This document shows positions 14,529 through 63,217 of a DNA stretch of 64,000 nucleotides, piece by piece. Numbering within the stretch: position 1 is the first letter of the stretch; each line of letters starts with the position of its first letter. The notes below the pieces were generated by a model. It ran no database searches. It was not told the DNA's origin and saw only the letters and a program-made list of their open reading frames with translations. Position numbers and translations under genes: made by a program. Origin of the DNA: an uncultured Planctomycetales bacterium (GTDB lineage: Bacteria; Omnitrophota; Gorgyraeia; Gygaellales; Profunditerraquicolaceae); assembly GCA_964487475.1 (NCBI GenBank), contig CAZAPM010000001.1, positions 122,086 to 186,085 on the forward strand. The letters run 5' to 3'.

Positions 14529-14875
14529 AGGCTGAGGAAAAGAAGGACGTGAAGGTCGCAGATCTCAAATTTGACGAAAAGGGGCTGATCCCGACGATTA
14601 TCCAGGAGTACAAGACCGGGGAAGTGCTGATGCTGGCGTATATGAACGCCGAGTCCATCAAGCGCACCATGAAGCTGGGCAAGACCTGCTTCTGGTCCCG
14701 TTCCCGCCAGGAGTACTGGGTCAAGGGGGAGACTTCGGGGCATTACCAGTTCGTCAAGTCCGTATCCTTCGACTGCGATCTCGACGCTTTGCTGATCAAG
14801 GTGCGGCAGATCGGGCCGGCGTGCCACACGAACAACGTTTCCTGTTTTTACCGGAAGTTCAAATTGGCGAAATAA
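14525..14875 (+). CDS. hisI: phosphoribosyl-AMP cyclohydrolase
   Basis: 116 aa. [22 protein letters not shown]...CHTN. Cyclohydrolase only, no HisE part. Confidence 0.9.
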
Positions 14876-14910
14876 TGAAACGTAACTTTCGGAAAGCACG
14901 GATGTATGCT

Positions 14911-14962
14911 TCGCTTAAGGTGTGGCCGCTCGAGTCTTTAGAGAATGGCCACACATGCGCTC
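14911..14962 (+). repeat. conserved ~52-nt structured motif, copy 1 (TCGCTTAAGG-stem-GCTCGAG-N5-AGAGAATGG-stem'-ATGCGCTC), intergenic hisI/trpE
   Basis: Near-identical blocks shared with 19327-19380. The variable arms GTGTGGCC / GGCCACAC are perfectly complementary. Confidence 0.55.
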
Positions 14963-14992
14963 AGCACACATCCGCGCTTTCCGATAGATAAC

Positions 14993-16483
14993 ATGTTCAA
15001 TCCATCATTTCAGGAATTTAAAAAGCTGGCGAAACAGGGGAACGTTGTTCCTGTGTATAAGGAGATCAACGCCGACCTGGATACGCCGGTCTCTGCCTTC
15101 CTTAAGATACGGGAGAAGGGCTACGCCTTCCTCCTGGAGTCCGTGGAAGGACAGGAGAAGATCGGCCGTTACTCTTTCCTGGGGACTTCGCCCTCGTTGG
15201 TCTTTACCAGCAAGGGCCGGCGTATCAGCATACGGTATCCCGCGACCGGCCGGGTGAAGGAGTTCGATACCGCGACCGACCCCCTGGACGAGGTGCGCAC
15301 CCTCATGCAGGGATACAAGGACGTGCCGGTTCCCGGGCTGCCCAGGTTCTACGGCGGGATGGTCGGGTATTTAGGGTATGATATGGTGCGTTTTTTCGAG
15401 GATATCCCGGATAAGAACCCGGATGAACTCCATCTGCCGGATTCGGTGCTGATGCTCACCGATACCATCCTGATCTTCGACCACGTCAAGCATACCATCA
15501 AGATCGTCAGCAACTGCCTGCTGGGCGGGAACGGGAAAAAGGGCAGGTCAGAGGCTTCCCTTTCAGCCGTATACCGCCAGGCCGTGCGCCGGATCGAGAC
15601 TTATGAGGCGCTCCTGGGCAAGGCCGTACCGGCTGCCAGCCGGGTGCACCATACCGGCCGCGGGGCCCGGATCACTTCGAACTTTAAAAAAGAAGAGTTT
15701 CATGGTATAGTTGATAAGTCTAAAAAGTACATCAAAGCAGGGGATATCATCCAGGTGGTGCTTTCGCAGCGTTTCGCTGCCCGCACGGATAAGGCGCCGT
15801 TCGATATGTACCGTACGCTGCGCAGCCTCAACCCCTCACCGTATATGTTCTTTCTCCAGATGGACGGGTTCCATCTGGTCGGTTCATCCCCCGAGATCCT
15901 GGTGCGATGCGAGGACAGGGTAGGGGTGGTGCGTCCTATCGCGGGTACCCGGCCGCGGGGAAGGGACGAGCAGGAGGATCTGGAGCTGGAGCGCGAGCTT
16001 CTGGCGGACCAGAAGGAAAGGGCCGAGCATCTGATGCTGGTGGACCTCGGCCGCAACGACCTGGGCCGGGTCTCCAAGCCGGGCAAGGTCAAAGTGACCG
16101 AGTTCATGACCGTGGAGCGGTATTCCCACGTGATGCATCTGGTCAGCGAGGTGCAGGGTATCCTCGAGAACAAGTACGACATCTACGATTGCCTGCGGGC
16201 GAGTTTCCCGGCCGGGACGGTTTCCGGCAGTCCCAAGATCCGGGCGATGGAGATCATAGATGAGCTGGAGAAGACCCGCCGCGGGCCGTACGCCGGAAGC
16301 GTCGGGTATTTCAGCTTCTCGCACAACATGGATATGTGCATTACCATCAGGACGATCATGCACAAAGGAAATACTGCCTACGTCCAGGCAGGAGCGGGGA
16401 TAGTGGCGGATTCGCTGCCCGCGCGTGAATATCGGGAGACCGAGCAAAAAGCCAAGGCCTTGATAGAGGCGATCAGCAAGTAA
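14993..16483 (+). CDS. trpE: anthranilate synthase component I-like chorismate-binding enzyme (TrpE/PabB family)
   Basis: N-terminal FKKLAKQGNVVPVYKEINADLDTPVSAF typical of TrpE. C-terminal chorismate-binding motifs LMLVDLGRND, PAGTVSGSPK, GPYAGSVGYF. Start taken at ATG 14993 because the track start at 14945 overlaps the conserved motif. Confidence 0.85.
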   Translation: MFNPSFQEFKKLAKQGNVVPVYKEINADLDTPVSAFLKIREKGYAFLLESVEGQEKIGRYSFLGTSPSLVFTSKGRRISIRYPATGRVKEFDTATDPLDEVRTLMQGYKDVPVPGLPRFYGGMVGYLGYDMVRFFEDIPDKNPDELHLPDSVLMLTDTILIFDHVKHTIKIVSNCLLGGNGKKGRSEASLSAVYRQAVRRIETYEALLGKAVPAASRVHHTGRGARITSNFKKEEFHGIVDKSKKYIKAGDIIQVVLSQRFAARTDKAPFDMYRTLRSLNPSPYMFFLQMDGFHLVGSSPEILVRCEDRVGVVRPIAGTRPRGRDEQEDLELERELLADQKERAEHLMLVDLGRNDLGRVSKPGKVKVTEFMTVERYSHVMHLVSEVQGILENKYDIYDCLRASFPAGTVSGSPKIRAMEIIDELEKTRRGPYAGSVGYFSFSHNMDMCITIRTIMHKGNTAYVQAGAGIVADSLPAREYRETEQKAKALIEAISK

Positions 16484-19290: not shown

Positions 19291-19297
19291 ATAAGTC

Positions 19298-19407
19298 AGG
19301 GACGGTTCTGCTGCAAAAGGGGTTTCTCGCTTAAGGTCGGTCCGCTCGAGCAATCAGAGAATGGACCTCAATGCGCTCGAACCCCCTTTTGCAGCAGAAC
19401 CGTCCCT
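19298..19407 (+). repeat. inverted-repeat element, copy A: perfect 25-bp terminal inverted repeats (AGGGACGGTTCTGCTGCAAAAGGGG / CCCCTTTTGCAGCAGAACCGTCCCT) enclosing the ~52-nt conserved motif (copy 2, 19327-19380); followed by a T-tract
   Basis: Arms at 19298-19322 and 19383-19407 are exact reverse complements. The loop carries the second copy of the TCGCTTAAGG...ATGCGCTC motif. TTTTTT follows at 19412-19417. Lies between secDF and mfd. Confidence 0.8.
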
Positions 19408-19424
19408 AATGTTTTTTACCTGTT

Positions 19425-21335
19425 ATGTTTAAAGCGCTCAAGCTTTATAAGGGGGAACCTCTTAATGTGGCCAGGTTCGCAATGGACCTGGCGGAGTACG
19501 GCTACCGGCCGCACGAGGCCGTGGCGCAGGAGGGGGACTTCTCCCGCCGGGGCGGGATCATCGACGTTTTCCCCTTCACCTTCGAGCTGCCTATCCGCAT
19601 CGAATTAGACGGCGACGTGATCGCGTCCATCCGCAGCATCGTCCCGGAGACCGGCCAGCCGCTCTGGGACCATTCCATGGCGATCGTCCTGCCCATCCAC
19701 AAGCGCGGGGCGGCCAAACACCTTCAGTTCAAGGAAGAGGTCCCCCTGGATAATTTCGTGGACCTTTCCGCAGGGGATTATGTCGTCCATACCCAGCACG
19801 GTATCGGCCGCTTTCTGGGCCTGGAGCGCATCAGGACGGGTGAGAAGCGCAAGGACCACCTGGTCATCGAATACGACCGGCACGAAAAGCTCTATGTCCC
19901 GGTCGACCAGATGCATCTGGTGCAGAAGTACCTGGCCTTCCAGAGCCGGCGGCCGAAACTCTTCCGTTTGGGTGGCAAGGAGTGGGCCAGGGTCAAGGAA
20001 AGGGCTAAAAAGGGCATCCAGAAGCTCGCCTGGGACCTTCTGACCCTCCAGGCGATGCGCGCCACGGTGCAGGGGCACTCCTTTGAAAAGGACACTGCCT
20101 GGCAGGAGCAGTTCGAGGCCACCTTCCCGTTTACCGAGACCCCCGACCAGCTTAAAGCCACTCAGGAGGTCAAGGCGGACATGGAGTCGGATAAGCCGAT
20201 GGACCGGCTGCTCTGCGGTGACGTCGGCTACGGCAAGACCGAGGTCGCCATGCGCGCGGTATTCAAGGCCGCGGCTTCCGGAAAGCAGGTCGCGTTCCTG
20301 GTCCCGACCACCATCCTGGCTGAGCAGCACTACAAGAACTTCAGCAAGCGGCTGACGGAATTCCCCCTGCGCGTGGAGATGCTCTCCCGTTTCAGGACCC
20401 CCCGGGAGCAGCGGGAGGTCGTCAAGGCCGTGGCGCAGGGCAGGGTGGATGTGGTCATCGGCACGCACCGGCTGCTTTCGCAGGACGTTTCCTTCCGCGA
20501 CCTGGGGCTGGTGGTGATCGATGAGGAGCAGCGCTTCGGCGTGCGTTCCAAGGAGAAGCTCAAGGCGATGCGCCTTAACACCGATGTACTGACCCTGACC
20601 GCCACCCCCATACCCCGTACCTTATATATGAGCCTGATGGGCGCCAAGGACCTTTCCATGATCAATACCCCTCCCCAAAACCGGTTGCCTATAAGGACCG
20701 TTGTGGTAGAATATGACGAAGATCTGATCCGCCAGGCGATCGCGCGCGAGCTCGCCCGCAAAGGGCAGGTGTATTTTTTGCACAACCGCGTGCAGGATAT
20801 CGAAAAGATCAAGGAACGGGTTGCGCGTCTGGCTCCGGCCGGCGCCAGGATCGCGATCGGCCACGGCCAGATGGCTTCCCGGCCGCTGGAACAGGTGATG
20901 ACCGGGTTCCTGGAGGCGAAATACGATATCCTGATCTGCACCATGATCGTGGAATCGGGGATCGATATCCCCAACGTCAATACGCTGATCGTCAATAACG
21001 CCCATACCTTCGGGCTGGCCGATCTGCATCAGCTGCGGGGCAGGGTGGGAAGGCTGGACAAACCGGCCTACGCCTATTTCATGGTGCCGCGCTCCCAGGT
21101 GTTCGATTCCGACGCGAAAAAGAGGCTGGAGGCGCTGCAGGAGTATTCGCAGCTGGGCGCGGGGTTCAAGATCGCGATGCAGGACCTGGAGTTGCGGGGC
21201 GCCGGCAACCTGCTGGGCGCGCAGCAGCACGGGTACATCGCCGCGGTCGGGTTCGATCTCTACTGCCGGCTTTTGAAGGAAGCGGTCAACGCATTTGAAA
21301 AGACAGGAGTGCAGGCAACTCATGAAACTCATTAA
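19425..21335 (+). CDS. mfd: transcription-repair coupling factor Mfd, short form (lacks N-terminal D1a and part of D2, and the C-terminal D7)
   Basis: RGGIIDVFP. RID-like HEKLYVPVDQMHLVQKY. Helicase motifs GDVGYGKTEVA, DEEQRFGV, QLRGRVGR. Only 636 aa versus about 1150 for canonical Mfd. Confidence 0.85.
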   Translation: MFKALKLYKGEPLNVARFAMDLAEYGYRPHEAVAQEGDFSRRGGIIDVFPFTFELPIRIELDGDVIASIRSIVPETGQPLWDHSMAIVLPIHKRGAAKHLQFKEEVPLDNFVDLSAGDYVVHTQHGIGRFLGLERIRTGEKRKDHLVIEYDRHEKLYVPVDQMHLVQKYLAFQSRRPKLFRLGGKEWARVKERAKKGIQKLAWDLLTLQAMRATVQGHSFEKDTAWQEQFEATFPFTETPDQLKATQEVKADMESDKPMDRLLCGDVGYGKTEVAMRAVFKAAASGKQVAFLVPTTILAEQHYKNFSKRLTEFPLRVEMLSRFRTPREQREVVKAVAQGRVDVVIGTHRLLSQDVSFRDLGLVVIDEEQRFGVRSKEKLKAMRLNTDVLTLTATPIPRTLYMSLMGAKDLSMINTPPQNRLPIRTVVVEYDEDLIRQAIARELARKGQVYFLHNRVQDIEKIKERVARLAPAGARIAIGHGQMASRPLEQVMTGFLEAKYDILICTMIVESGIDIPNVNTLIVNNAHTFGLADLHQLRGRVGRLDKPAYAYFMVPRSQVFDSDAKKRLEALQEYSQLGAGFKIAMQDLELRGAGNLLGAQQHGYIAAVGFDLYCRLLKEAVNAFEKTGVQATHETH

Positions 21336-22246: not shown

Positions 22247-23236
22247 ATGACCTTATCCTCGCGCCGCACAGTACGGGTCGGTATCACCATGGGGGATCCC
22301 GCGGGGATAGGTCCGGAAGTGATCGCCCGTTCCCTCGCGCAGCTGCCGGAATCCGCGCAGTACCTGTTGATCGGGGACGCGGGCGTGTTGTTCCGCTATC
22401 TGAAGGCACGCCGGCTGCCGCGGCATGTCGCCATCCTGGATTGTGCCAATGTCAACGCGAGAAATCTGCAGCCGGGGAGGATCTGCGCCGCATACGGTAA
22501 CGCTTCGCTGGAGTATGTCGACCGGGCGCTGGACCTTTGCCTCCGCGGGCAGCTCGACGCGCTGGTGACCGCTCCTCTTTCCAAGGAGGCGGTGTGCCTG
22601 GGAGGGCAGGCGGATTTCCGCGGCCATACCGAATATCTGGCCAGAGCCTGCGGCGTGGCCCAACCGGTGATGATGTTGATGAACCGCGCCTGCAAGATCG
22701 TGATGGCCACCCGGCATATCCCGCTTTCGCAGGTGTCCCGGACGCTTGATCCCGGCGAGATCGCGCATGCGGTTATGACCGCCGCGGCCCTGCTGCCGAA
22801 GGAGTTCGGTATCCGCGCCCCGCGTTTCGTGGTCTGCGGCCTCAATCCGCACGCATCGGATCACGGTATCATCGGAAAAGAGGAGGCGCAGGTCGTGCAG
22901 CCGCTTGTCCTGAAGCTGCGCAGCAGGCTTACGCGCAAGGGATGCACGATCGAAGGGCCTCTGGCCGCCGATGCCGCATTGAGCGCCGCGGTCTGCGGCC
23001 GCTACGATTGCGCGGTGGCCATGTACCATGACCAGGCGCTGATCGCGCTGAAAGTCTCTCACGCCGACAGCGGCGTTAACGTTACCCTGGGGCTGCCTTT
23101 TGTCCGCACCTCGCCTCTGCACGGGACCGCGTTCGATATCGCCGGCCGTGGAATCGCGCGAGCCGATTCGCACCTGGCAGCGGTGCGCACCGCCGTTTCC
23201 TGCGCGCAAAAAAAACTTCTCGCAAGGAAATCCTGA
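22247..23236 (+). CDS. pdxA: 4-hydroxythreonine-4-phosphate dehydrogenase
   Basis: VGITMGDPAGIGPEV. GHTEYLA. C-terminal TSPLHGTAFDIAG. Confidence 0.92.
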   Translation: MTLSSRRTVRVGITMGDPAGIGPEVIARSLAQLPESAQYLLIGDAGVLFRYLKARRLPRHVAILDCANVNARNLQPGRICAAYGNASLEYVDRALDLCLRGQLDALVTAPLSKEAVCLGGQADFRGHTEYLARACGVAQPVMMLMNRACKIVMATRHIPLSQVSRTLDPGEIAHAVMTAAALLPKEFGIRAPRFVVCGLNPHASDHGIIGKEEAQVVQPLVLKLRSRLTRKGCTIEGPLAADAALSAAVCGRYDCAVAMYHDQALIALKVSHADSGVNVTLGLPFVRTSPLHGTAFDIAGRGIARADSHLAAVRTAVSCAQKKLLARKS

Positions 23237-24051
23237 TGGCGCGTCACCGGCCCAAGAAATCCCTGGGACAGCATTTTCTCGCCGACCGGCATTACCGCAG
23301 CCGCATCGCGGAGCTGCTGGGATTGGACGGCACGCAGCGGGTCATCGAGATCGGCCCGGGCAGGGGGGAGATGAGCGCGCTTATCGCGCCCCGCGCGGCG
23401 CGGCTGGCCTGTATCGAGCTGGACCGCGATGTGCTCCCGGCGCTCGAAGCGGCGCTGGCCCCGTATCCGCACACGAAGATATTCTGCGCGGATGTGCGCA
23501 AAGCGGATATGGACGCGATCGCGCAATGGGTGCTGGAAGGCGCTCCCCGGGCGGGGATCCTGGCGTTCGGCAACATCCCCTATTACATTACCACGCCCAT
23601 CTTAGAGAAGCTCATCCCGCAGCGCCACCGCATCCGGCGCATCGTGCTTACGGTGCAGAAGGAGTTCGCGCACCGCATGGCTTCCGCGCCCGGTTCCAAG
23701 GAGTTCGGCGCATTGAGCTGTTTTGCGCAGTATCATGCGCATTGCCGCGTCCTGCTGGAGATCCCGCGGGGGGCGTTCTGGCCGGTCCCGAAGGTGGATT
23801 CTTCGGTGGTCGAGTTGAGGCTCAAGGAAACCCTTCCCTGTACGCCGGACGAGGAGAAGCGCCTTTTTTTCCTGATCCGCGCCGCGTTCACCCAGCGGCG
23901 AAAAATGCTGCGTTCCGCCCTGAAAGGCTTCGCGCCGGCCGCGGCGCTCGAGCAATCATGCGCCGCGTGCGCCGTCGACAGCCGCCAGCGGCCGGAAACC
24001 CTCTCCCTGGAGCAATTCATCTGCCTTTCCTCCCGGATTTTTAGAAAATAA
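23236..24051 (+). CDS. rsmA: 16S rRNA (adenine1518/1519-N6)-dimethyltransferase
   Basis: KSLGQHFL. VIEIGPGRGEMS. FGNIPYYITTPI. Confidence 0.93.
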   Translation: MARHRPKKSLGQHFLADRHYRSRIAELLGLDGTQRVIEIGPGRGEMSALIAPRAARLACIELDRDVLPALEAALAPYPHTKIFCADVRKADMDAIAQWVLEGAPRAGILAFGNIPYYITTPILEKLIPQRHRIRRIVLTVQKEFAHRMASAPGSKEFGALSCFAQYHAHCRVLLEIPRGAFWPVPKVDSSVVELRLKETLPCTPDEEKRLFFLIRAAFTQRRKMLRSALKGFAPAAALEQSCAACAVDSRQRPETLSLEQFICLSSRIFRK

Positions 24052-58878: not shown

Positions 58879-59979
58879 ATGACGCATAAAATTACATTAA
58901 TTCCCGGTGACGGGATCGGTCCGGAAGTGGCTCTCGCGGCAAAACGCTGTATCGACGCGACGGGTGTCAAGATCGAGTGGGAGGAAGTGATCGCCGGCCA
59001 GGCGGCCCTGGAGAAGTTCGGGGAGCTGCTTCCTGCGGCGGTGCTGGATTCGGTCAAGCGCAACAAAGTCGCGCTCAAGGGGCCGATGACTACCCCCATC
59101 GGCACGGGATTCCGTTCTGTCAACGTGGCGCTGCGCCATGCGCTCGATCTGTATGCCTGCGTGCGGCCGGCCAAGTCTTACCCCGGGGTCAAGAGCCCGT
59201 ATAAGGATATCGACCTGGTCATTGTCCGCGAGAACAGCGAGGACCTTTACGCGGGGATTGAGTTCGAGATGGATAAGCCCGAGACCAGGGCCTTGATCGC
59301 AGAGATCGAAAAAGGCTCCAGGAAAAAGATACTTCCCGATTCGGGGATCTCGATCAAGCCTATCTCGGTGACCGCAACCCGCCGCATCGTCAAGTACGCC
59401 TTCGAATACGCCCTGGCTCACCGCCGGAAGAAAGTGACCGTGGTCACCAAGGCGAACATCATGAAGTTCACCGACGGGCTGTTCCTCAAGACTGCCCGCG
59501 AGGTGGCCAAGGAATACGAGGGAAGGGTACAGTTCGAGGAGGCGCTGGTCGATGCCATGGCCATGCAGCTGGTGCAAAAGCCGCACTCCTACGATATCCT
59601 CTGCCTGCCGAACCTTTACGGTGATATCATCTCGGACCTTTGCGCCGGTTTGATCGGCGGATTGGGAATCGCGCCCGGGTCCAATATCGGCGACGGCATG
59701 GCGGTATTCGAGGCGGTGCACGGTTCTGCTCCCAAATATGCCGGACAGAACAAGGTGAACCCTACCGCGATGATCCTTTCCGGGGTGCTGATGCTGCGCT
59801 ACCTTAACGAGGGCAAGGCTGCGGATGCGCTGGAAGGCGCGCTTACGGCCGTGCTGGCCGAGGGTAAGGATGTCACGTATGATCTTAAGCCTTCGCGCGA
59901 GGATCCGACCGCGGTAGGCACCAGCCAGATGGCGGATGCCATTATTAAAAAAATAGGGGACACTTCTAACCGTAAATGA
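58879..59979 (+). CDS. isopropylmalate/isocitrate dehydrogenase family enzyme (LeuB or NAD-IDH)
   Basis: IPGDGIGPEV. Conserved substrate-binding SVNVALR. GDIISDL. Cluster context with leuCD favours LeuB, but the adjacent mdh leaves IDH possible. Confidence 0.85.
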   Translation: MTHKITLIPGDGIGPEVALAAKRCIDATGVKIEWEEVIAGQAALEKFGELLPAAVLDSVKRNKVALKGPMTTPIGTGFRSVNVALRHALDLYACVRPAKSYPGVKSPYKDIDLVIVRENSEDLYAGIEFEMDKPETRALIAEIEKGSRKKILPDSGISIKPISVTATRRIVKYAFEYALAHRRKKVTVVTKANIMKFTDGLFLKTAREVAKEYEGRVQFEEALVDAMAMQLVQKPHSYDILCLPNLYGDIISDLCAGLIGGLGIAPGSNIGDGMAVFEAVHGSAPKYAGQNKVNPTAMILSGVLMLRYLNEGKAADALEGALTAVLAEGKDVTYDLKPSREDPTAVGTSQMADAIIKKIGDTSNRK

Positions 59980-59990
59980 GAACCGTCCCT
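59956..59990 (+). repeat. half copy (C) of the AGGGACGG inverted-repeat element (GGGGACACTTCT...GAGAACCGTCCCT), embedded in the leuB/mdh junction
   Basis: The 12-mer GGGGACACTTCT is identical to the copy at 63171-63182, and the right terminus AGAACCGTCCCT is shared with the other copies. It encodes the last 8 codons and TGA of the dehydrogenase, and the ATG plus first 5 codons (MRTVPK) of mdh. Confidence 0.7.
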
Positions 59991-60911
59991 AAGATTTCGA
60001 TTATCGGAGCGGGGAATGTAGGCGGGATGACCGCCATGCGCATCGCCCAGGAGGATCTGGGAGAGGTGGCGCTGATCGATATCGCCAAAGGCCTGGCAAA
60101 AGCCAAAGCCTGCGATATGGACGATTCCCGCCAGGTCCTCGGCAACGGTTTCCGGATCACCGGCAGCGAGGATATGTCCGCGCTCTCGGGATCGGAGGTA
60201 GTGGTGGTGACCGCCGGCCTGGCCCGCAGGCCGGGGATGACCAGGGAGGACCTGCTGGCTAAGAACGCGCAGATCCTCAAAGAAGTGTGCTCTGCCGTAA
60301 AGGCGCACGCTTCCCAGGCGATCCTGGTGGTGGTGACCAATCCTTTGGATATCATGACCAGGTATGCCTTGAGCGTGACCGGATTCCCCCGGGAGCGCGT
60401 GATCGGGATGGGTTTAAGCCTGGATGCGTCCCGTTTCGCCAATCTGATCGCAGGAGAATTATCCGTACCCGTGACATCGGTCGATCCGTGCGTGATCGGA
60501 AGCCACGGAGAGGGGATGATGCCCTTGCCGCGTTTTACCACCGTCAACGGCAAGCCTTTGTCTAAGCTCGTTTCTCCCGAGAAGGCCCAGGAGCTGGTCG
60601 CCCGCACGGTATCCCGCGGCGCCGAGATCGTCGGGCTTTACGGCAGCGGGAGCGCGTATTTCGCGCCGTCGGCTTCTTCCGCCTGCCTGGTGCGCGCCAT
60701 CCTCAAGGACGAGAAGCGGACCATCGGCGTCTCCTGTTTCCTCCAGGGTGAATACGGGATCAAGGATACCTGTATCGGCGTGCCCTGCGTCATCGGCCGC
60801 AAAGGTATCGAGAAAGTGGTGGCCCTGGACCTGGATGCCCAGGAGAGCGCTGCGCTGCAGTCTTCCGCCGGAAAGCTGGCCGCGCAGTGTGTGTCCCTTA
60901 CCGCAGCATAA
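59976..60911 (+). CDS. mdh: malate dehydrogenase (LDH-like MDH family)
   Basis: KISIIGAGNVGG Rossmann motif. LARRPGMTREDLL. VTNPLD. GSHG. Confidence 0.9.
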   Translation: MRTVPKISIIGAGNVGGMTAMRIAQEDLGEVALIDIAKGLAKAKACDMDDSRQVLGNGFRITGSEDMSALSGSEVVVVTAGLARRPGMTREDLLAKNAQILKEVCSAVKAHASQAILVVVTNPLDIMTRYALSVTGFPRERVIGMGLSLDASRFANLIAGELSVPVTSVDPCVIGSHGEGMMPLPRFTTVNGKPLSKLVSPEKAQELVARTVSRGAEIVGLYGSGSAYFAPSASSACLVRAILKDEKRTIGVSCFLQGEYGIKDTCIGVPCVIGRKGIEKVVALDLDAQESAALQSSAGKLAAQCVSLTAA

Positions 60912-63125: not shown

Positions 63126-63133
63126 CAGCTCGT

Positions 63134-63206
63134 AGGGACGGTTCTGGTTTACGGTTAAAAGTGTCCCCCTGGGGACACTTCTCCGAACAAAAACAGAACC
63201 GTCCCT
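63134..63206 (+). repeat. inverted-repeat element, copy B: 13-bp termini AGGGACGGTTCTG / CAGAACCGTCCCT with internal hairpin GTGTCCCC-CT-GGGGACAC; then a T-tract
   Basis: Termini identical to the first 13 nt of the arms of copy A (19298-19407). Located right after the lipoyl-carrier stop. TATTTTTAT follows. Confidence 0.75.
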
Positions 63207-63217
63207 ATTTTTATCTC

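Follow-up and report, generated by a model that had tools for sequence, protein, structure and literature searches.

A 52-nt motif made up of four invariant blocks and three variable segments occurs twice in the 64-kb window (the whole stretch of DNA that was analysed). This repeated, modular hairpin element is genuine, and with a probability that we put at roughly 0.55 it forms the conserved centre of a nested-hairpin repeat of the REP/REPIN/MITE kind that is dispersed and specific to the lineage. The window was searched with the gapped pattern TCGCTTAAGG-N7-GCTCGAG-N5-AGAGAATGG-N6-ATGCGCTC and with a fixed-spacing pattern tolerating three mismatches, using dinucleotide-preserving shuffles as controls. 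Matches were found only at positions 14911-14962 (copy 1) and 19327-19378 (copy 2), in both cases with 0 mismatches, on the + strand and with identical spacing between the four blocks. The two copies differ at 0 of 34 block positions and at 12 of the 18 positions of the three variable segments (Fisher p=9e-8), therefore neither chance nor uniform decay after duplication accounts for the similarity. The original prediction of a ~52-nt motif present twice, with four identical blocks in the same order and spacing and with a similarity beyond chance, was borne out in all these points; only the end of the second copy had to be moved from 19380 to 19378.

Chance similarity, plain recent duplication of one long segment and a small protein-coding gene retain next to no probability as explanations, and are effectively refuted. 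Zero motif pairs were found in 100 shuffles (0 expected), and there is no relationship between the flanks just outside the 52 nt. One of the reading frames (TCG CTT AAG…) stays open across the two cores, but the 12 nucleotide differences result in six changed codons, none of them synonymous. Elsewhere in the window, positions 23945-23958 (CGCTCGAGCAATCA) are identical over 14 nt to block B plus the variable loop of core copy 2. The matching stretch sits in a coding region (ORF 23236-24051, whose counterpart in the related contig L088 has an RrnaAD domain) just upstream of a tRNA cluster. Because its BLAST E value is 0.008, this match is probably due to chance.

The arms flanking the variable loop are self-complementary in each copy, with the 8 and 5 bp that had been predicted. 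In copy 1 the inner stem (GTGTGGCC/GGCCACAC) consists of 8 bp (core positions 10-17 with 37-44). In copy 2, GGTCC and GGACC form 5 bp in the same register (core positions 13-17 with 37-41), three pairs of copy 1 being broken, or else a competing helix of 8 bp can form in a shifted register, which recruits the 'conserved' TTAAGG block. Only two inner pairs are truly compensatory (13-41, T-A to G-C; 15-39, G-C to T-A). When the isolated cores were folded and compared with shuffled sequences, a z score of -2.4 was obtained for copy 1, and copy 2 was no better than the shuffles (z=-0.35). These changes had originally been taken for a classic covariation signature. The coexistence of identical unpaired blocks with variable, self-complementary segments stands, but the inner stem itself offers two pairs in two sequences, and copy 2 has the competing register and the poor z score. 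The pattern of blocks and segments gains strength when the outer stems described below are included: both members then change in 17 of 34 pairs, of which 15 belong to the outer helix and two to the inner.

Both cores are the tips of long outer hairpins, of about 20 bp in copy 1 and 29 bp in copy 2, and each copy together with its outer stem measures roughly 96-115 nt. The hairpin of copy 1 had been overlooked earlier. Its 5' arm (TCGGAAAGCACGGATGTATGCT, 14889-14910, + strand) pairs at 20 of 22 positions with the 3' arm, which begins directly after the core (14963-14984, + strand); the remaining two positions are A.C oppositions on the + strand and G.U on the - strand. In copy 2, the perfect 25-bp hairpin mentioned in the original prediction was found again as part of a longer stem: the 5' arm (19296-19326, + strand), whose base bears a REP-like terminus, (C)AGGGACGGTTCTG, common to another element at 63133-63207, pairs with the 3' arm (…CAGAACCGTCCCTAA, 19379-19409, + strand) at 29 of 31 positions, including an uninterrupted run of 25 perfect pairs. 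A T6 run (19412-19417, + strand) follows a few bases 3' of this hairpin, and the composite structure is terminator-like for secDF. Between the two copies, the outer arms show no sequence relationship (local similarity p about 0.99), and in both copies they abut the core exactly at its first and last base. In an ungapped alignment of the core with 20 nt on either side, 91% of the cells pair, compared with 26-50% in slid controls.

Folded as + strand RNA, the whole elements reach -54.3 kcal/mol (copy 1, z -9.5) and -70.6 kcal/mol (copy 2, z -10.3). The folds of the - strand are slightly better (-62.0 and -74.3 kcal/mol), owing to mismatches of the transition type, which are A.C on the + strand and G.U on the - strand. 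This holds for all four oppositions of this type (14898/14975, 14906/14967, 19297/19408, and core position 7/43 of copy 2); the strand bias of these four cases has a one-sided p of about 0.06, and it is the antisense strand that folds better though the nearby genes are all on the + strand.

The 14-nt termini of copy 2 (TAGGGACGGTTCTG) recur in the window at two further sites. The first, at 63133-63207 (+ strand), is a REPIN-like doublet without the core; its two units (TAGGGACGGTTCTG…GTGTCCCC) are in inverted orientation, and a T-run comes after them. It can form a nested hairpin with a 14-bp outer stem, an internal loop and a 9-10-bp inner stem, and lies 3' of a gene encoding a biotin/lipoyl domain; a promoter-like sequence (TTGACA-N17-TATATT) is present just past it. 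The second, at 59956-59991 (- strand), is a single unit, 92% identical to the left unit of the doublet and in the opposite orientation. This singlet is located within coding sequence, where it provides the last codons and the stop of icd (TGA, 59977-59979) as well as the start (ATG, 59976) and first codons of mdh. Together with these sites, the window holds two cores and three GGGACGG-type elements, all at gene ends. Inverted REP units (TAGGGACGGTTCTG) are present on both arms in the outer part of copy 2 and in the doublet; the arms of copy 1 have no second occurrence within the window.

Local alignment of the core with the GGGACGG unit, and of the arms of copy 1 with those of copy 2, revealed no significant similarity (p 0.5-0.99). 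In semi-global tests against the unit, p was about 0.08 for copy 1 (not significant) and about 0.025 for copy 2. Copy 2 and the hairpin in the orthologous spacer of a related locus (L068) have GTTT(T/C)TCGCTTAA in common at the same place of the loop (p about 4e-4), and the doublet at 63133-63207 has GTTTACGGTTAA there. From these two likenesses, at least block A of the core (TCGCTTAA) seems to be native interior of the GGGACGG-type hairpin family; the rest of the core beyond block A was found in none of the 43 syntenic relatives. Copy 2 is a mosaic of REPIN-like termini and a centre common to copy 1.

Exact deletion of the 52 nt from either element leaves zero-spacer, near-perfect palindromes (…ATGCT|AGCAC… and …GGTTTC|GAACC…). 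On this account, the core could represent a mobile unit of miniature size whose insertion takes place exactly on the dyad axis (hairpin tip) of pre-existing perfect palindromes, a GGGACGG REPIN in one case and an unrelated palindrome in the other. IS1397 and ISKpn1, which insert in REP/BIME loops, provide a precedent, and the unrelated outer stems as well as the origin of the copy 2 outer part from a family that exists without the core are in keeping with such an event. We nevertheless regard it as doubtful. There is no terminal inverted repeat, target-site duplication or conserved flanking target, and differences at 12 of 18 variable positions would be odd for a recently transposed unit. In addition, block A is already present in the orthologous hairpin loop of L068, with the similar CGGTTAA at the corresponding place in 63133-63207, and the outer 3' arm of copy 1 (CACACATCCGCGCT) resembles the 3' part of the core itself, CACACAT--GCGCT, as if duplicated locally (p about 0.006, uncorrected for six tests).

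For a comparison of the two spacers, 41 metagenome loci with SecDF relatives (40-76% amino acid identity, mostly 54-76%) and two closer contigs, L088 (HisI 85%) and L089 (HisI 83%), were used, in total 43 relatives and about 496 kb. The nearest named homologues of HisI belong to Candidatus Omnitrophota MAGs (74-81% identity); one 83% match is labelled Deltaproteobacteria, and the sole cluster at 100% is the source organism. Seven short metagenome contigs of the same organism (≤2.2 kb) fall inside the window, and their copy 1 region is identical to that of the window. The gene order hisF-hisI-trpE-rpsP-yajC-secDF-mfd is kept in most relatives. The element was absent from the orthologous spacers of all relatives examined. 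A covariance model (R1) detected no copy in the relatives and no further copy in the window; its weak matches (E 0.14-10) lay inside the hisI coding sequence and did not cover the central part of the model.

In 15 of 21 loci the gap between hisI and trpE is 14 nt or less (0-14). In six relatives this spacer contains unrelated inserts of 89-182 nt, palindromic or tandemly repeated: an AT-rich palindrome in L052, an imperfect hairpin in L060, a perfect 27-bp hairpin in L061 (whose family has three copies in the L061 locus), a tandem repeat in L064, and GC-rich nested inverted repeats in L088 and L089. The independent inserts in at least six other lineages thus make the hisI-trpE junction a recurrent landing site of hairpin DNA, and the insert carrying copy 1 is one more insertion at this hot spot.

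The secDF-mfd spacer is tiny in some relatives. It contains a canonical terminator in L058-L061, L070 and L088, and a 'GGGGACG…CGTCCCC' hairpin or its variant GGGACCG in L049, L050, L055, L068 and L071; most of the readable hairpins of this type are preceded by an A-run and followed by a T-run. The outer stem of copy 2 is of the same GGGGACG…CGTCCCC type, and its termini (TAGGGACGGTTCTG) recur as GGGGACG hairpins in L050, L055, L065, L068, L071 and L089. By analogy with the hairpins of the relatives, the copy 2 hairpin and T-run most likely terminate the secDF transcript. The intrinsic terminator scan skipped copy 2 in spite of the T6 run at 19412-19417 a few nt past the stem, because the loop exceeds 8 nt. 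The element is lineage-specific and was gained at places that are empty or filled by other hairpins in the relatives.

Perfect palindromes whose loop has 0 or 1 nt are common in these loci. Examples of 28-53 bp are found at L048 4231-4266, L061 4819-4860, L066 9253-9280, L069 1277-1310, L050 12223-12275 and L064 19485-19527. Some palindrome families are species-specific, for example ACCCGCATCTGAAAC, with three sites in L061, and TAGTT(T/A)ATAGTTCAT in L064. The zero-loop palindromes suggest an origin at the DNA level, not selection for RNA hairpins.

The data have to be weighed against a structured RNA that functions in cis, as the binding partner of a protein or the substrate of a nuclease, and would govern stability or expression of the flanking mRNAs. 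The postulated fold has a long P1, a CGC/GCG helix of 3 bp, an asymmetric internal loop (UUAAG/AU), a P2 that varies and an apex that is conserved. Conserved unpaired blocks next to variable paired segments, the extreme predicted stability of the whole elements, outer stems that meet the core at identical positions, and the orientation of both copies along the flanking genes, within probable operons, are all compatible with such an RNA. However, the shared orientation says little, because essentially all genes between 1.9 and 63 kb are on the + strand (the GC skew is positive throughout). The copy 2 core with its z score of -0.35, the unequal register of the inner helix in the two copies, and the four A.C oppositions, which become G.U on the antisense strand only, speak against such an RNA. 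The downstream genes, trpE and mfd, are functionally unrelated, the element is missing from all syntenic relatives examined, and the perfect zero-loop palindromes of those relatives point to DNA-level processes. Rfam 15, searched with the whole window at gathering thresholds, returned two tRNAs only, and for the two loci with E up to 10 it returned only noise from miRNA-precursor hairpins (14-41 bits against gathering thresholds of 49-114). We therefore consider a cis-acting RNA possible but rather unlikely. The original interpretation, a structured RNA or a protein-bound palindromic site, is in agreement with the pattern of conservation; it fits less well with the absence from the relatives' spacers, with the palindrome hot spots and with the building of copy 2 into a REPIN-like family.

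Pfam assigned the genes flanking the copies to PRA-CH (hisI), anthranilate synthase I (trpE), SecDF and an Mfd-like helicase, which confirmed the predicted location of copy 1 between hisI and trpE and of copy 2 between secDF and mfd. The genes recognized around the copies were hisF, hisI, trpE, rpsP, yajC, secDF and, 3' of copy 2, the gene of the Mfd-like helicase of 636 aa; icd, mdh, a lipoate ligase and other housekeeping genes were identified elsewhere in the window. The predicted 'mfd' product (19425-21335) is short and contains the domains UvrB_inter, CarD_TRCF_RID, DEAD and Helicase_C. Mfd of L088 has the same short form (633 aa), and this lineage appears to lack the C-terminal portion that Mfd normally has. 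The L088 counterpart of the ORF 3' of mfd is SurA-like.

The true start of trpE is at 14993, because the relatives align from residue 1. The longest-ORF and JGI calls place it at 14945, at an ATG inside the core, which adds 16 spurious codons; gene callers thus extend trpE into the repeat. The copy 1 element lacks a T-run, and its end lies 8 nt ahead of the start codon of trpE. A 38-codon ORF (14875-14991, + strand) begins in a TAATG overlapping the hisI stop, runs through the entire copy 1 element and terminates with a TAA one base before the trpE ATG. Its translation, which is only predicted, may preserve translational coupling between hisI and trpE. Since such an arrangement would arise by accident with a chance of roughly 7%, a figure estimated without computation, it is to be taken as a lead only. 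In copy 2, a 23-codon ORF (19361-19432) starts from the conserved ATG of the core, and its TAA overlaps the mfd start (ATGTTTAA). The bridging ORFs of the two copies may reflect a logic of tolerated insertion, i.e. translational coupling, or may be a coincidence. The start codon at the apex or the bridging ORF might let the module sit between coupled genes without polarity.

The location of both copies upstream of genes, and the three short palindromes within the conserved blocks (CTTAAG, CTCGAG, GCGC), could also indicate a binding site for a protein on double-stranded DNA or a promoter before trpE and mfd with GAGAAT as -10. This is very unlikely. The promoter scan found nothing in the core, TTAAGG and GAGAAT are 20 nt apart, and the blocks as a whole lack dyad symmetry. 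CTCGAG and CTTAAG occur in the window at the expected frequencies (27 versus 28.8 and 21 versus 20.5), without the avoidance typical of restriction sites, and the motif is absent from relatives of the same gene order. By-eye likenesses to K-turn, sarcin-ricin, 11-nt tetraloop receptor, sigma-54 and IHF motifs were also considered, and none fits without ad hoc changes.

Further copies were sought beyond the relatives. A search for CTTAAGG..GCTCGAG..AGAGAATGG in 185,579 species genomes gave one chance match, in an fmt coding region, and in metagenome contigs zero matches. The 16-base half pattern had 37 matches in viral contigs, every one without the flanking blocks, and blastn against plasmids and phages gave zero matches. 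A literature search found no report on palindromic or intergenic repeats of Omnitrophota.

REP doublets form hairpins and are mobilised by RAYT HUH transposases (PMC3116915, PMC3337134). Like REPs and REPINs, the elements described here are extragenic, dispersed, long near-perfect hairpins in which a conserved recognition sequence is combined with a segment that is different in each copy and always pairs. They also have flanking A-runs and T-runs and are co-opted as terminators, the singlet at 59956-59991 accompanies the doublet at 63133-63207, and in its outer part copy 2 is a true inverted doublet of a repeated unit. In contrast to REPINs, the core has its conserved part, which is asymmetric, in the centre and varies at its ends, the reverse of the canonical layout. 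The core has no GTAG-like 5' tetranucleotide, and because the four blocks are inverted copies neither of one another nor of one REP, it is not itself a REP doublet. No RAYT or transposase was recognized among the 20 ORFs of the window that were scanned with Pfam; the others have the look of ribosomal or housekeeping genes. Together with the mere two copies, the lack in the core of terminal inverted repeats, target-site duplication and GTAG-type signature counts against the repeat reading, and so does the perfect retention of 34 unpaired nt beside fully diverged stems, which also fits a functional RNA.

Correia elements and other bacterial MITEs are bounded by terminal inverted repeats, have a length of 100-150 bp and are transcribed into hairpins cut by RNase III; some carry promoters or IHF sites. 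The present elements resemble them in their size of about 100 nt, their location between co-transcribed genes and the folding of the whole element as a long mRNA hairpin. They differ in that the two core-bearing elements are similar only in the centre: the outer arms are unrelated, a common terminal inverted repeat and a clear target-site duplication are lacking, and no bases are consistently duplicated at the boundaries of core or element, the sole hint being an imperfect ATAATG/ATAACATG at the flanks of copy 1. A conserved foreign segment at the tip of a palindrome, whose removal restores the palindrome, is reminiscent of IS1397 and ISKpn1; those, however, are full insertion sequences with transposase, terminal inverted repeats and target-site duplications, whereas the segment found here is 52 nt long and non-coding.

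With attC sites and IS200/IS605 elements, the motif shares the principle that a fold and a few unpaired or extrahelical bases are recognised and the stem sequence is free. The attC sites and the subterminal hairpins of IS200/IS605 are structure-specific single-strand DNA substrates (for the HUH superfamily, PMC6006769). Unlike in these systems, there are no R''/R' boxes (RYYYAAC/GTTRRRY) in either element and no adjacent integrase, cassette array, TnpA or TnpB, the neighbours being hisI/trpE and secDF/mfd; furthermore, the conserved parts of attC are at the ends, not in the centre. Copy 2 resembles a Rho-independent (bidirectional) terminator in its GC-rich hairpin followed by TGTTTTTT, at a place where relatives carry canonical terminators, but its 29-bp stem with a 52-nt structured tip goes far above what termination needs, and copy 1 has no T-run. 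A trp leader or attenuator (TRAP site, T-box or leader peptide) does not fit either: there was no T-box or leader match, copy 2 precedes mfd, and the motif is absent before trpE in the relatives. The element works like REP/REPIN and MITE hairpins but cannot be assigned to a defined family: the core lacks inverted REP units, terminal inverted repeats, a target-site duplication and attC boxes, no RAYT is visible among the scanned ORFs of the window, and the layout is reversed.

If the motif is the centre of such a nested-hairpin repeat, the element would have spread within the lineage as folded single-stranded hairpins, either by HUH/RAYT- or IS200-like transposition or by palindrome-palindrome recombination and template switching. 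The four unpaired or asymmetric blocks, kept identical, would constitute the surface that a trans-acting protein reads sequence-specifically on the folded single strand. The stems would need only to pair; they could drift and then be re-matched, by selection for the hairpin or by quasipalindrome correction. The latter, being templated by the hairpin itself, is a route to 'compensatory' changes that requires no selection. In the case of REPINs, the spacers are different in every copy and the hairpin is always formed, and REPIN activity yields long perfect palindromes (PMC3337134). At its present place, copy 1, a very stable hairpin within the formerly coupled hisI-trpE junction, would act as a protector of mRNA 3' ends or a target of RNase III, with the ORF from the hisI stop to the trpE start possibly maintaining translational coupling. 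Membership in a longer mobile repeat, with a similarity due simply to recent duplication, had been named in advance as a finding that would speak against a structured motif. Both copies do lie within longer hairpin repeats, but their flanks differ, so that one long unit was not simply duplicated in recent time.

All of this is based on two copies from a single uncultivated genome. It is improbable, in our view, that the 52-nt module is a new structure-recognised element, whether a tip-targeting mobile unit or a protein-binding RNA or single-stranded DNA module with freely covarying P1 and P2. Such a protein-recognised structure or mobile unit would amount to a new, tool-like recognition system, which two copies cannot show. 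'Compensatory' changes in hairpin repeats alone are not evidence for a regulatory RNA. If the repeat reading is true, the modular form of the element, a conserved centre with free stems that is nested in another repeat family, is unlike the textbook REP/REPIN, and it would show palindromic repeats colonising and re-using the few permissive spacers in the compact genome of an uncultivated lineage.
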